Origin: Escherichia coli
GTDB lineage: Bacteria > Pseudomonadota > Gammaproteobacteria > Enterobacterales > Enterobacteriaceae
DNA: 64,000 bases
Strand: one strand, 5' to 3'
NCBI RefSeq assembly: GCF_041886205.1
Contig: NZ_CP169029.1
Shown here one piece after another: positions 14,456 through 21,274 of the stretch. Positions within the stretch are counted from its first letter, which is position 1. Every line of letters begins with the position of its first letter. The notes below the pieces were generated by a model, which saw only the letters and a program-made list of their open reading frames with translations, did not search any database and was not told the DNA's origin. The translations under genes were made by a program, and so were the position numbers.

Positions 14456-14841
14456 GACGTATCGCCTGATTTGCTACCCGTCATGACTGTGATTCCGCCA
14501 ACATCAACGGTAACACGCGGCATTCGGGATATTTCGTATGTCAAAGGTAACCGTTACCACTTTTCGCGCCTGGTTTTTTTAGTTTCACGACGAAAAAATG
14601 GTCTAAAACGTGATCAATTTAACACCTTGCTGATTGACCGTAAAGAAAGATGCGCTACATACAAGTGTAGCACCGTTTATTCTCTGTAAATTCCTTATTA
14701 CGACGGCGTGAAACGCCTGTCAGGATCCACTGCCAGACCTCATTTTACGGTTTGCGCAGGCGTCTACGTTTCACCACAACACTGACATCACTCTGGCAAG
14801 GATGTTAGGATGGACCACGGATGATAATGACGGTAACAAGC

Positions 14842-15783
14842 ATGTTAGACAATGTTTTAAGAATTGCCACACGCCAAAGCCCACTTGCACTCTGGCAGGC
14901 ACACTATGTCAAAGACAAGTTGATGGCGAGCCATCCGGGCCTGGTCGTTGAACTGGTACCGATGGTGACGCGCGGCGATGTGATTCTTGATACGCCGCTG
15001 GCGAAAGTAGGCGGAAAAGGCTTATTTGTAAAAGAGCTGGAAGTCGCGCTCCTCGAAAATCGCGCCGATATCGCCGTACACTCAATGAAAGATGTGCCGG
15101 TTGAATTCCCGCAAGGTCTGGGACTGGTCACTATTTGTGAGCGTGAAGATCCTCGCGATGCCTTTGTGTCCAATAACTATGACAGTCTGGATGCGTTACC
15201 GGCAGGCAGTATCGTCGGGACGTCCAGTTTACGTCGCCAGTGCCAACTGGCTGAACGCCGCCCGGATCTGATTATCCGCTCCCTGCGCGGCAACGTCGGC
15301 ACTCGCCTGAGTAAACTGGATAACGGCGAATACGATGCCATCATTCTTGCCGTAGCCGGACTAAAACGTTTAGGTCTGGAGTCCCGCATTCGCGCCGCGT
15401 TACCGCCCGAGATTTCTCTTCCGGCGGTAGGACAAGGTGCGGTCGGTATTGAATGCCGCCTTGATGATACACGCACTCGCGAGCTGCTTGCCGCGCTGAA
15501 TCACCACGAAACTGCACTGCGCGTTACCGCAGAACGCGCCATGAATACCCGTCTCGAAGGCGGATGTCAGGTGCCAATTGGTAGCTACGCCGAGCTTATT
15601 GATGGCGAAATCTGGCTGCGTGCGCTGGTCGGCGCGCCGGACGGTTCGCAGATTATTCGCGGTGAACGCCGCGGTGCGCCGCAAGATGCCGAACAAATGG
15701 GGATTTCGCTGGCAGAAGAGCTACTGAATAACGGCGCGCGCGAGATCCTCGCTGAAGTCTATAACGGAGACGCCCCGGCATGA
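14842..15783 (+). CDS. hemC: Porphobilinogen deaminase HemC
   Basis: Translation [20 protein letters not shown]...; 313 aa. Confidence 0.95.
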
Positions 15784-16520
15784 GTATCCTGGTCACCCGC
15801 CCGTCTCCCGCTGGAGAAGAGTTAGTGAGCCGTCTGCGCACACTGGGGCAGGTGGCCTGGCATTTTCCGCTGATTGAGTTTTCTCCGGGTCGACAATTAC
15901 CGCAACTTGCTGATCAACTGGCAGCGCTGGAGGAGAGCGATCTGTTGTTTGCCCTCTCGCAACACGCTGTTGCTTTTGCCCAATCACAGCTGCATCAGCA
16001 AGATCGTAAATGGCCCCGACTACCTGATTATTTCGCCATTGGACGCACCACCGCACTGGCACTACATACCGTAAGCGGACAGAAGATTCTCTACCCGCAG
16101 GATCGGGAAATCAGCGAAGTCTTGCTACAATTACCTGAATTACAAAATATTGCGGGCAAACGTGCGCTGATATTACGTGGCAATGGCGGTCGTGAGCTAA
16201 TTGGGGATACCCTGACGGCGCGCGGTGCTGAGGTCACTTTTTGTGAATGTTATCAACGATGCGCAATCCATTACGATGGTGCAGAAGAAGCGATGCGCTG
16301 GCAATCCCGCGAGGTGACGACGGTCGTTGTTACCAGCGGTGAAATGTTGCAGCAACTCTGGTCGCTGATCCCACAATGGTATCGTGAGCACTGGTTACTA
16401 CACTGTCGACTATTGGTCGTCAGTGAGCGTTTGGCGAAACTCGCCCGGGAACTGGGCTGGCAAGACATTAAGGTCGCCGATAACGCTGACAACGATGCGC
16501 TTTTACGGGCATTACAATAA
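15780..16520 (+). CDS. hemD: Uroporphyrinogen-III synthase HemD
   Basis: 246 aa; ATGA overlap with hemC stop; operon hemCDXY. Confidence 0.9.
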
Positions 16521-16541: not shown

Positions 16542-17741
16542 ATGACGGAACAAGAAAAAACCTCCGCCGTGGTTGAAGAGACCAGGGAGGCCGTGGACAC
16601 CACGTCACAACCTGTCGCAACAGAAAAAAAGAGTAAGAACAATACCGCATTGATTCTCAGCGCGGTGGCTATCGCTATTGCTCTGGCGGCGGGCGTCGGT
16701 TTGTATGGCTGGGGTAAACAACAGGCCGTCAATCAGACCGCCACCAGCGATGCCCTGGCTAACCAACTGACGGCATTGCAAAAAGCCCAGGAGAACCAAA
16801 AAGCCGAGCTGGAAGGCATTATCAAGCAACAGGCTACGCAGCTTGAACAGGCGAATCGTCAGCAAGAAACGCTGGCAAAACAGTTGTATGAAGTCCAACA
16901 AAAGGTCGCCACCATTTCCGGCAGCGATGCTAAAACCTGGCTGCTGGCTCAGGCCGATTTTCTGGTGAAACTCGCCGGACGGAAGCTGTGGAGCGATCAG
17001 GACGTCACGACCGCTGCAGCGTTGCTGAAAAGTGCAGACGCCAGCCTGGCGGATATGAATGACCCGAGTCTGATTACCATTCGTCGGGCAATTACCGATG
17101 ATATCGCCAGCCTTTCTGCAGTATCGCAGGTGGATTATGACGGCATCATCCTTAAGCTTAATCAGCTTTCAAATCAGGTAGATAACCTGCGTCTGGCCGA
17201 TAATGACAGCGATGGTTCGCCGATGGATTCCGACGGTGAAGAGCTTTCCAGTTCCATCAGCGAATGGCGTATCAATTTGCAAAAAAGCTGGCAGAACTTT
17301 ATGGACAACTTCATTACGATTCGCCGTCGTGATGACACCGCCGTACCGCTGTTAGCGCCAAATCAGGATATCTATCTGCGCGAAAATATTCGCTCTCGCC
17401 TGCTGGTCGCTGCACAAGCTGTACCGCGTCATCAGGAAGAGACTTATCGCCAGGCGCTGGAGAACGTCTCCACCTGGGTACGTGCTTACTACGATACTGA
17501 TGATGCCACCACCAAAGCATTCCTCGACGAGGTGGACCAGTTAAGCCAGCAAAATATCTCGATGGATCTTCCGGAAACCCTGCAAAGCCAGGCGATGCTG
17601 GAAAAACTGATGCAGACTCGCGTGCGTAACCTGCTGGCACAACCGGCAGCGGAGACAACGGAAGCTAAACCTGCACCTGCACCTGCACCTGCACCTGCAC
17701 CGCAAGCTGATACTCCGGCAGCCGCGCCGCAAGGAGAATAA
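16542..17741 (+). CDS. hemX: HemX membrane protein with C-terminal Pro-Ala repeat
   Basis: 399 aa; N-terminal TM segment; coiled-coil Gln-rich region; C-terminal [13 protein letters not shown]. Confidence 0.9.
17670..17699 (+). repeat. Perfect hexanucleotide tandem repeat (CCTGCA)x5 encoding (Pro-Ala)5 inside hemX
   Basis: Read directly: cct gca repeated five times in frame. Confidence 0.9.
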
Positions 17742-17743
17742 CC

Positions 17744-18940
17744 ATGCTAAAAGTGTTATTGCTCTTTGTGTTGCTGATTGCGGGGATCGTGGTTGGCCCG
17801 ATGATTGCCGGTCATCAGGGTTATGTGCTGATCCAGACCGACAACTACAATATCGAAACCAGCGTCACGGGCCTCGCGATTATTTTGATTCTGGCGATGG
17901 TAGTACTGTTTGCCATTGAGTGGCTACTGCGGCGGATCTTCCGCACTGGCGCGCACACCCGTGGGTGGTTTGTCGGGCGTAAGCGTCGCCGTGCACGTAA
18001 GCAGACCGAACAGGCGCTGCTGAAACTGGCGGAAGGCGATTATCAGCAAGTTGAAAAGCTGATGGCGAAAAATGCCGATCACGCGGAACAACCGGTGGTG
18101 AACTATCTACTGGCTGCCGAAGCCGCGCAACAACGTGGTGATGAAGCACGCGCCAACCAACATCTGGAACGCGCAGCGGAGCTGGCCGGCAATGACACCA
18201 TTCCGGTAGAAATCACCCGTGTACGTCTGCAACTGGCCCGTAATGAAAACCATGCTGCACGCCACGGCGTGGATAAGCTGCTGGAAGTTACGCCACGCCA
18301 TCCGGAAGTATTACGTCTGGCAGAACAGGCGTATATCCGCACAGGTGCATGGAGTTCGCTGCTGGATATTATCCCATCAATGGCGAAAGCCCATGTTGGT
18401 GATGAAGAACATCGTGCAATGCTGGAACAACAGGCATGGATTGGCCTGATGGATCAGGCGCGTGCCGATAACGGTAGCGAAGGTTTGCGTAACTGGTGGA
18501 AAAACCAAAGCCGGAAAACGCGTCATCAGGTAGCGTTGCAGGTGGCAATGGCGGAACATCTTATTGAATGTGACGATCATGATACTGCCCAGCAAATTAT
18601 CATCGACGGCCTGAAACGCCAGTATGACGATCGTCTGCTGCTGCCGATTCCGCGTCTGAAAACCAATAACCCGGAACAGCTGGAAAAAGTGCTGCGCCAA
18701 CAGATCAAAAACGTCGGCGATCGCCCGCTGTTGTGGAGCACACTGGGTCAGTCGCTGATGAAGCACGGCGAATGGCAGGAAGCATCGCTCGCCTTCCGTG
18801 CAGCGCTGAAACAACGTCCGGACGCCTACGATTACGCATGGCTTGCCGACGCGCTGGACAGACTGCACAAGCCGGAAGAAGCCGCAGCGATGCGTCGCGA
18901 CGGTTTGATGTTAACGTTGCAGAATAACCCGCCACAGTAG
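17744..18940 (+). CDS. hemY: HemY, TPR-containing inner membrane protein
   Basis: 398 aa; two N-terminal TM segments; follows hemX with a 2-nt gap. Confidence 0.9.
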   Translation: MLKVLLLFVLLIAGIVVGPMIAGHQGYVLIQTDNYNIETSVTGLAIILILAMVVLFAIEWLLRRIFRTGAHTRGWFVGRKRRRARKQTEQALLKLAEGDYQQVEKLMAKNADHAEQPVVNYLLAAEAAQQRGDEARANQHLERAAELAGNDTIPVEITRVRLQLARNENHAARHGVDKLLEVTPRHPEVLRLAEQAYIRTGAWSSLLDIIPSMAKAHVGDEEHRAMLEQQAWIGLMDQARADNGSEGLRNWWKNQSRKTRHQVALQVAMAEHLIECDDHDTAQQIIIDGLKRQYDDRLLLPIPRLKTNNPEQLEKVLRQQIKNVGDRPLLWSTLGQSLMKHGEWQEASLAFRAALKQRPDAYDYAWLADALDRLHKPEEAAAMRRDGLMLTLQNNPPQ

Positions 18941-19194: not shown

Positions 19195-19618
19195 TCGTTT
19201 ATTATGCCACAGAGAATCGGGAAATAACATCCCTTAACACTTGTTATGAGATAATTCTGTACCCCTCTTTGCTTCCTGAGTAATAACTTCCTGAGTGAAT
19301 ATTTACCCTGAGCTTGATTCTACACATACTCATTATGAATGATAAAATTCATTCAATTAATAACACATATATTAATTGCTGTTAAAACTAAAAACAGCAT
19401 CAATAATCAACGCGATATAATAAACCTGCCTTACATATCAACTGCGCCAGAGGTAGGATTGAAAATGCTCTCCTGATTTTTAAATTCATTTTTGGGATAA
19501 ATAAATAATTTATTTTTATCACTATTATTTATGCAATCATCCTGTCAGGGAGAGGGATCTCAATTATCAATGCTTAATTACGTCATCATTTTGATGACAT
19601 GAAACCGGAGCATTTTGC

Positions 19619-21274
19619 ATGGAATTTTCGTTTTCACCCAAACTTCTTGTTGTTGCTGTCGCCGCCGCTCTTCCTCTCATGGCCAGCGCAGCTGATACCC
19701 CGTCAACTGCCACCGCACGCAAAGGCTTTGCCGGATACGATCACCCAAACCAGTATCTGGTTAAACCGGCGACCACTATTGCCGACAACATGATGCCAGT
19801 AATGCAGCATCCGGCGCAGGATAAAGAAACCCAGCAGAAGCTGGCAGAACTTGAGAAAAAAACCGGTAAGAAGCCCAACGTAGTGATCTTTCTTCTGGAT
19901 GACGTGGGCTGGATGGACGTCGGCTTTAACGGCGGCGGCGTGGCAGTGGGTAACCCTACACCAGATATCGACGCCGTTGCCAGCCAGGGGCTGATTTTAA
20001 CTTCGGCGTATTCTCAACCAAGCTCTTCCCCAACCCGCGCCACCATTCTCACCGGACAATACTCCATCCACCACGGCATTCTGATGCCGCCAATGTACGG
20101 GCAACCGGGCGGGCTGCATGGGTTAACCACGCTGCCGCAGTTGCTGCACGATCAGGGCTACGTCACTCAGGCCATCGGGAAATGGCATATGGGAGAAAAC
20201 AAAGAGTCGCAGCCGCAGAACGTTGGCTTTGATGATTTCCGTGGCTTTAACTCGGTGTCTGATATGTACACCGAATGGCGCGACGTTCACGTAAACCCGG
20301 AAGTGGCCCTGAGTCCGGACCGTTCTGAATACATCAAGCAATTACCGTTCAGCAAAGATGACGTTCATGCAGTGCGCGGCGGCGAACAACAGGCCATTGC
20401 CGACATTACGCCGAAATATATGGAAGATCTGGATCAACGCTGGATGGACTATGGCGTTAAGTTCCTCGACAAGATGGCGAAGAGCGATAAGCCTTTCTTC
20501 CTCTATTACGGCACTCGCGGCTGTCACTTCGATAACTACCCGAACGCCAAATATGCGGGTAGCTCTCCGGCGCGCACCTCTTACGGCGACTGCATGGTGG
20601 AGATGAACGATGTGTTCGCTAATCTGTATAAAACACTGGAGAAAAACGGTCAGCTTGATAACACGCTGATCGTCTTTACCTCCGATAACGGACCGGAAGC
20701 CGAAGTACCGCCGCACGGACGCACACCGTTCCGTGGTGCGAAAGGTTCGACCTGGGAAGGCGGCGTTCGCGTACCGACTTTCGTTTACTGGAAAGGGATG
20801 ATCCAACCGCGTAAATCTGACGGTATTGTCGATCTGGCAGATCTCTTCCCTACCGCGCTGGATCTGGCAGGGCATCCTGGAGCGAAAGTGGCGAATTTAG
20901 TGCCGAAAACCACCTTTATCGATGGTGTGGACCAGACATCCTTCTTCCTGGGAACAAATGGTCAGTCTAACCGTAAGGCCGAGCACTACTTCCTCAACGG
21001 TAAACTCGCTGCTGTGCGTATGGATGAGTTCAAGTATCACGTCCTGATTCAGCAACCTTACGCTTATACCCAGAGCGGATATCAGGGTGGATTCACCGGC
21101 ACAGTAATGCAAACGGCGGGATCGTCGGTGTTTAACCTGTACACCGATCCGCAGGAAAGCGACTCTATCGGCGTGCGCCATATTCCGATGGGTGTACCGC
21201 TACAGACCGAAATGCACGCATATATGGAGATCCTGAAAAAATATCCACCACGCGCGCAGATTAAATCTGATTAA
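19619..21274 (+). CDS. aslA: Arylsulfatase AslA (Ser-type sulfatase, S-x-P-x-R motif), periplasmic
   Basis: 551 aa; signal peptide; sulfatase signature [13 protein letters not shown] around nt 20027-20045. Confidence 0.9.

Follow-up and report, generated by a model that had tools for sequence, protein, structure and literature searches.

The CCTGCA array in the Pro-Ala tail of Escherichia coli HemX is the typing locus CVN014

The hemX gene, its hexanucleotide array and the hemY junction

The window, by which is meant the whole 64-kb stretch of E. coli DNA analysed here, carries the gene order hemC-hemD-hemX-hemY. Open reading frames for hemC (14821–15783) and hemD (15780–16520) lie upstream of hemX (16542–17741, + strand), which encodes a protein of 399 amino acids and is followed, after a gap of 2 nt, by hemY (17744–18940, +), encoding a protein of 398 amino acids with HemY_N and TPR matches. 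The product of hemX matches the Pfam HemX family, PF04375, along nearly the whole of the profile (positions 2–235 of 236; E = 5.1e-108; 360.6 bits, the cut-off being 25.9), and its RefSeq orthologues are annotated hemX; the RefSeq protein name, 'uroporphyrinogen-III C-methyltransferase', is historical. Reviews describe HemX and HemY as poorly characterised membrane proteins (PMC2704936), and the Keio hemX deletion is reported to have reduced gentamicin sensitivity (PMC12282077).

The layout of HemX is one of an N-terminal segment containing KKSK, a hydrophobic helix at approximately residues 36–57, a coiled-coil or otherwise helical region, the PF04375 domain at residues 130–363 and, finally, a Pro/Ala-rich tail at residues 364–399, C-terminal of residue 363 there being no match to any family. 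It is within this tail, in the last 10% of the gene (codons 377–386 of 399), that the array is found. Five exact copies of CCTGCA occupy positions 17670–17699 (+), as established both by direct reading of the window and by a scripted check. The first repeat codon is that of residue 377 (16542 + 3 × 376 = 17670), such that the array is read in the hemX frame as five Pro-Ala dipeptides, P377 to A386. An earlier note on this DNA had described a perfect (CCTGCA)5 array that codes for a repeat of Pro-Ala towards the C-terminus of HemX, and both parts of that description are borne out, the second by the agreement of frame, residues and Pfam match. The same note had also seen a degenerate sixth unit, CCGCAA. 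Here the CCG codon does continue the pattern with a proline, but just three of the six bases match CCTGCA, and the call made by Tandem Repeats Finder (17669–17701, period 6, 5.5 copies, 100% matches, score 66) extends beyond the fifth unit by two bases (CC) only. A tandem-repeat search of the whole 64 kb returned no other perfect array and no other array of period 6. Assuming equal base frequencies and the 24 bases that are fixed by a 30-nt hexamer array, the chance expectation for such an array is ca 2e-10 per 64 kb (4^-24 × 64,000 positions).

The position of the array in the protein bears on how it is to be regarded. Since PF04375 ends at residue 363 and the protein itself ends 13 residues after the repeat, the segment is a C-terminal tail and not an interdomain linker; in other words, there is a folded domain on one side of it only, and the flexible linker proposed in the earlier note does not stand. 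In this regard the tail differs from the OmpA hinge, the Pro-rich spacer of TonB and the Ala/Pro linkers of the pyruvate dehydrogenase E2 component, all of which contain alternating Pro and Ala and are expected to be extended and non-globular, but which join two folded domains. An AlphaFold2 model of HemX places residues 280–365 in helices (pLDDT 64–81) and approximately residues 364–399 in coil (pLDDT 27–31), from which the tail, a low-complexity segment, is probably disordered. The model was used solely for this contrast between residues 280–365 and the tail and, because it is poor overall (mean pLDDT 44, from an alignment of 22 closely related Enterobacteriaceae sequences), it supports disorder of the tail weakly. 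A search of the literature found no report on the function of the HemX tail.

The 13 codons on the 3′ side of the array (17700–17738, +) end in PQGE and overlap the Shine-Dalgarno sequence of hemY, AAGGAG (17731–17736, +), which lies within the last codons of hemX. From the end of the array it is 31 nt to the Shine-Dalgarno sequence and 45 nt to the start of hemY. Necessarily, therefore, the distance from the Shine-Dalgarno sequence to the hemY ATG is independent of repeat number, as the array is upstream of both. A hairpin is predicted at 17724–17775, in which the Shine-Dalgarno region (GCAAGGAGAAUAAC) would pair with hemY codons 5–10 (GUUAUUGCUCUUUGUG); such a structure would fit translational coupling of hemY to hemX although, with z = -1.3, the prediction may be without meaning.

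Identity with CVN014 and allelic variation across E. coli

In typing work this array is known as CVN014, a variable-number tandem repeat (VNTR) from the generic E. coli MLVA scheme (GECM-7/GECM-10; credited to Lindstedt et al. 2007 by PMC8143711, PMC3877011, PMC3519732 and PMC3407997). This identification makes use of the primer tables reprinted in later papers (PMC8143711, Table 1). The forward primer, TCCCCGCAATCAGCAAMACAAAGA, matches without mismatch at 17763–17786 (−), within the first hemY codons, and the reverse primer, GCAGCRGGGACAACGGAAGC, matches with one mismatch at 17646–17665 (+). Each matches once only in the 64 kb, where approximately zero matches are expected by chance, and the two sites converge on either side of the array. 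The resulting amplicon, 17646–17786, is 141 bp long, or 111 bp once the 30 bp of repeat are subtracted. From the published sizing rule for the locus, (PS-111)/6 (PMC8143711), an amplicon of 141 bp is allele 5. The locus known from typing and the hemX array are thus the same in primers, in the 6-bp unit, in the 111-bp offset and in presence, range and diversity.

The single mismatch in the reverse primer site is due to a GGG to GAG change (Gly371Glu) at 17653–17655 of the window, 8 bases from the 5′ end of the primer. At this codon the window has GAG (Glu) where each of the 16 E. coli alleles that were fetched has GGG (Gly). The substitution is rare, since a 110-nt query across codon 371 matches at 100% only wlxctx60 and 40EC among complete genomes.

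Published typing work describes CVN014 as present in all isolates with 2–12 repeats (PMC5217547), as having 2–11 copies in ST131 (PMC3407997), as 'the most variable locus' of the assay (PMC3877011) and, in non-O157 STEC, as having a Nei index of 0.83 and a range of 4–15 (PMC3519732). The cited MLVA papers treat it as an anonymous marker, with hemX, the Pro-Ala tail and hemY all unmentioned, and a literature search returned no E. coli paper joining hemX with MLVA, VNTR or tandem repeat; the sole related match concerned an unrelated point mutation in Salmonella hemX. The locus is outside the eight-locus O157 MLVA scheme. A different identity, with VNTR-19/TR7, had been suspected from the score of 6 given to EDL933 at that locus and the six hemX units of an O157 genome. 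It was rejected, as the window, searched with up to three mismatches allowed, contains no site for the published primer; VNTR-19/TR7 has been assigned to the open reading frame Z3274 (PMC3321953).

With a 291-nt query around the array, the locus was found in 5,425 of 5,426 complete E. coli genomes. Allele frequencies rest on two systematic samples of 60 genomes each, rather than on the full count, with copy number taken from the matched span; in the pooled total of 120, NCTC11023 is counted twice, being in both samples, and a few other genomes are likewise shared. The systematic samples were used for this purpose because, with the 110-nt query, BLAST split its matches over the repeat and the identity bands mixed alleles. 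In both samples every difference in matched span is a multiple of 6 bp. The pooled tally comprises one genome with a deletion allele, about 20 with two copies, four with three, 10 with four, 19 with five, 18 with six, 14 with seven, nine with eight, 10 with nine, five with 10, six with 11, one with 13 and two with 16. The distribution is accordingly uneven, with a peak at two copies and a broad peak at five to seven, and corresponds to a Nei diversity of ca 0.89. This unevenness could reflect mutational dynamics, in which short arrays are stable, phylogenetic sampling or weak selection. Both the range and the diversity seen in the genomes agree with the literature on CVN014, the complete genomes stretching the range slightly, to 0–16 copies.

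When the hemX repeat is compared across E. coli genomes, therefore, its copy number differs, such that the species does not share a single repeat length. The alleles fetched for direct comparison include those of K-12 DH1 and IAI39 (two copies each), 21F61 (two copies and an interrupted CCTACA unit), strain 130 (seven), CUPF06 (eight), 53_142304 (nine), AVS0969 (10), KE48 (13) and ST3, CE0021a and ZH48 (16 each), together with those of the O157:H7 strains 380-94 (four), 86-24 (six), TW14359 (11) and NE 1092-2 (15). In NCTC11023 the array is deleted along with the QADTP codons. The 16 fetched alleles differ by whole CCTGCA units within the same flanks, the exceptions being the CCTACA interruption of 21F61, which is the sole imperfect array among them, and the larger deletion of NCTC11023. 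Arrays are perfect up to 16 copies. The range in E. coli consequently runs from 0 to at least 16, where 16 is a lower bound on the maximum: a synthetic 20-copy query, with matches ranked by identity and not by copy number, gave alleles of 12–16 copies, and additional 16-copy genomes came from the second 60-genome sample.

The effect on the protein is direct. Annotated HemX lengths are 384 amino acids in NCTC11023, 393 in K-12 and 421 in ST3. The earlier note had given the K-12 protein about 393 residues and had supposed that the window has two or three additional units. The first figure is correct, as the hemX coding sequence of DH1 is 1182 nt long with two units, and the 399 residues of the window are those of K-12 plus exactly three. 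The accompanying proposal, that in-frame changes of copy number vary the length of the protein, is likewise upheld by the exact 6-bp steps and the 0–16 copies of the fetched alleles. Derivatives of K-12 have two copies uniformly in the first 60-genome sample. One genome labelled 'DH5alpha' (NZ_CM135829.1) may be mislabelled, as it is 4.83 Mb long with five units, against ca 4.6 Mb and two units in K-12 derivatives.

The allele without any repeat (NZ_LS483297.1, 4601288–4601653) has the junction AAACC|GGCAGCC and a HemX of 384 amino acids that is annotated as intact. The sequence at the junction suggests that the array was lost through a deletion between short CC/CCGG microhomologies.

Probable origin and tolerance of the length variation

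Change in copy number at the locus is recurrent within clones and is not a single ancient event. Indeed, O157:H7 genomes alone carry 4, 6, 7, 11, 12, 13 and 15 copies, and the flanking haplotype is a different one in each of the three 16-copy alleles. Slipped-strand mispairing is the accepted mechanism for VNTRs of this kind. Mispairing of the hexamers during replication would lead to the gain or loss of whole CCTGCA units and, with each unit, of one Pro-Ala dipeptide. As the unit is of two codons, the frame is never shifted and, with the hemY ribosome-binding site located downstream of the array, the spacing between hemX and hemY is unaffected. Moreover, with the tail of low complexity, probably disordered and outside the conserved HemX domain, changes in its length would be tolerated. 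Length changes so tolerated would then drift rapidly, giving 0 to at least 16 copies and many alleles per clone. The reading of the locus that we favour, at a probability of roughly 0.87, is of near-neutral replication slippage within a disordered Pro/Ala tail, in which we infer that slippage causes the changes, that they are nearly neutral and that the tail is disordered.

Other hexamer loci provide a point of reference. In O157, VNTR-3, -9, -17, -19 and -37 are, like the hemX array, 6-bp units within open reading frames, with diversity indices of 0.74–0.90 (PMC3321953), and O157 hexamer VNTRs show slippage-type changes of single and multiple units (PMC3777172). They are nonetheless different loci, and several of them have null alleles, whereas the hemX array belongs to the core genome. 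Parallel serial passage of O157 gave mutation rates of ca 1e-4 to 1e-5 for comparable 6-bp VNTRs, at loci other than CVN014 (PMC3777172).

The repeat unit itself may also contribute to its instability. CCTGCA contains the palindrome TGCA, and quasi-hairpins are predicted for the single strand on either strand of the DNA. In folding predictions, single strands of 11 units have energies of -12.2 and -14.8 kcal/mol (z = -4.9 and -2.6), and those of five units are indistinguishable from shuffled sequence. These predicted energies are consistent with longer alleles being less stable, and the two-unit allele would presumably be a common, stable end-state.

Comparison with orthologues shows how the tail varies beyond E. 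coli. HemX of the Citrobacter freundii group and of C. gillenii contains CCTGCA at the same position, with from two to four or more Pro-Ala units depending on the strain; C. gillenii itself has (CCTGCA)4, with neighbouring strains differing by Pro-Ala units, and C. rodentium has three units. In Salmonella hemX, on the other hand, there is no array, just one degenerate unit. In C. sedlakii the place of the E. coli array is taken by one to three copies of a 9-bp unit, CCTGCCGCA, coding for PAA, which is a second, independent in-frame VNTR in the HemX tail. The C. sedlakii proteins P0022, P0010 and P0006 come from different strains, in which HemX is of 394, 397 and 400 amino acids, with one, two or three copies. 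That the array is outside PF04375, that orthologue tails vary and that one natural isolate is without the repeat altogether together suggest that the length of the tail is tolerated and probably nearly neutral.

The residues that follow the repeat are well kept. In the alignment of orthologues P385, P396, Q397, G398 and E399 are invariant across genera, A386, P392, A393 and A395 are nearly so, and the final PQGE is invariant in Escherichia, Citrobacter and Salmonella. This conservation is the starting point for an alternative in which the Pro-Ala run acts as a semi-rigid spacer, setting the reach of a conserved terminal P-A-A-A-P-Q-G-E motif from the membrane-anchored body of HemX to a partner in the envelope, with its lengths selected by lineage. 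Such a role would sit well with the retention of a Pro/Ala-rich segment of some kind in both Escherichia and Citrobacter, with the non-uniform distribution of alleles and with the description of HemX as a distant homologue, without the mitofilin domain, of the contact-site protein Mic60 (bioRxiv 10.1101/2022.06.14.496148). If it were true, the hypermutable hexamer would allow heritable and reversible retuning of a spacer distance within a core housekeeping operon. The terminal conservation, however, is at least partly due to the overlapping hemY Shine-Dalgarno sequence, AAGGAG, and the run itself is nearly lacking in Salmonella and wholly so in the natural isolate NCTC11023. Furthermore, close relatives differ widely in length, both in the O157:H7 genomes considered here and in ST131 (PMC3407997). 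We therefore regard selection on spacer length as improbable, with only a slim chance of being correct. A second role, in which the number of units would act on the folding of the mRNA or on translational coupling where hemX meets hemY, and so tune HemY synthesis, is given some plausibility by the 31 nt between array and Shine-Dalgarno sequence and by the 2-nt gap between the genes. When the junction was folded by partition function with 0–20 units, however, the pairing probability stayed at 1.00 for the Shine-Dalgarno sequence and at 0.36 for the AUG, the repeat pairing with itself. The spacing of stop codon, Shine-Dalgarno sequence and AUG is, as noted, independent of the array, and the local hairpin at the hemY start does not stand out from shuffled sequence (z = -1.3), which makes an effect on HemY very unlikely.

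Slippage, and hypermutability when set against the remainder of the genome, are also features of the simple-sequence contingency loci of Haemophilus and Neisseria, and the high allelic diversity of the hemX array might be taken to mean that it too is phase-variable, with slippage switching hemX or hemY on and off. The hemX array differs in that the length of its unit is divisible by three and in that it lies at the 3′ end of a gene, in neither the promoter nor the early coding region. Every change of 6 bp is in frame and so cannot give on/off switching; in keeping with this, all 16 fetched alleles retain the frame and the stop codon, and RefSeq annotates an intact hemX in each. The prospect of such a switch here is negligible. 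Equally hard to credit is that the variation is an artefact of sequencing or assembly, with repeats collapsed or expanded. Short repeats can indeed mis-assemble, and one metagenomic sequence, P0001, may be a case in point: this E. coli-like HemX of 485 amino acids, from a single ENA contig, has an odd internal tandem duplication of 86 residues (HQEETYRQ...TTEAKPA) with its junction at the start of the Pro-Ala run, which could be real or an assembly artefact. Against a general artefact, arrays of at most 96 bp lie within single reads, the steps in complete genomes are of exactly 6 bp, K-12 derivatives consistently have two copies, and MLVA studies size the same variation independently from PCR fragments (PMC5217547, PMC3407997, PMC3877011, PMC3519732). 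Near-neutral slippage in the Pro/Ala tail is thus the reading with which these observations are best reconciled.

The marker in use and other repeats in the window

As an established typing marker and a textbook slippage-prone microsatellite, the hemX array is already known. What can be added is small: the marker is placed in the tail of hemX, just upstream of the hemY ribosome-binding site, its range is given as 0–16 units, and its variation is seen to change HemX from 384 to 421 residues. The MLVA allele of the window can be read directly as CVN014 = 5, which is found in roughly one-sixth of complete E. coli genomes. For studies of HemX and HemY, it follows that the 'wild-type' tail is not the same from strain to strain, laboratory K-12 having two units where most natural isolates have five to seven or more.

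Two further repeats occur in the window. The first is a 15-bp tandem repeat at 55257–55293 (2.5 copies, 90% matches), the unit of which on the − strand is GCGTGGTGGTGATTA (Val/Ile codons). It is situated ca 190 bp upstream of an open reading frame for a 548-aa acetolactate synthase large subunit (53427–55073, −), and is what we would presume to find in the leader-peptide/attenuator region of ilvGMEDA. The second is a near-duplicate of 15–16 bp at 19272–19301, CTTCCTGAGTRAATAA in 1.9 copies, in the long AT-rich intergenic region between the end of hemY at 18940 and the start of a 551-aa sulfatase-like open reading frame at 19619.
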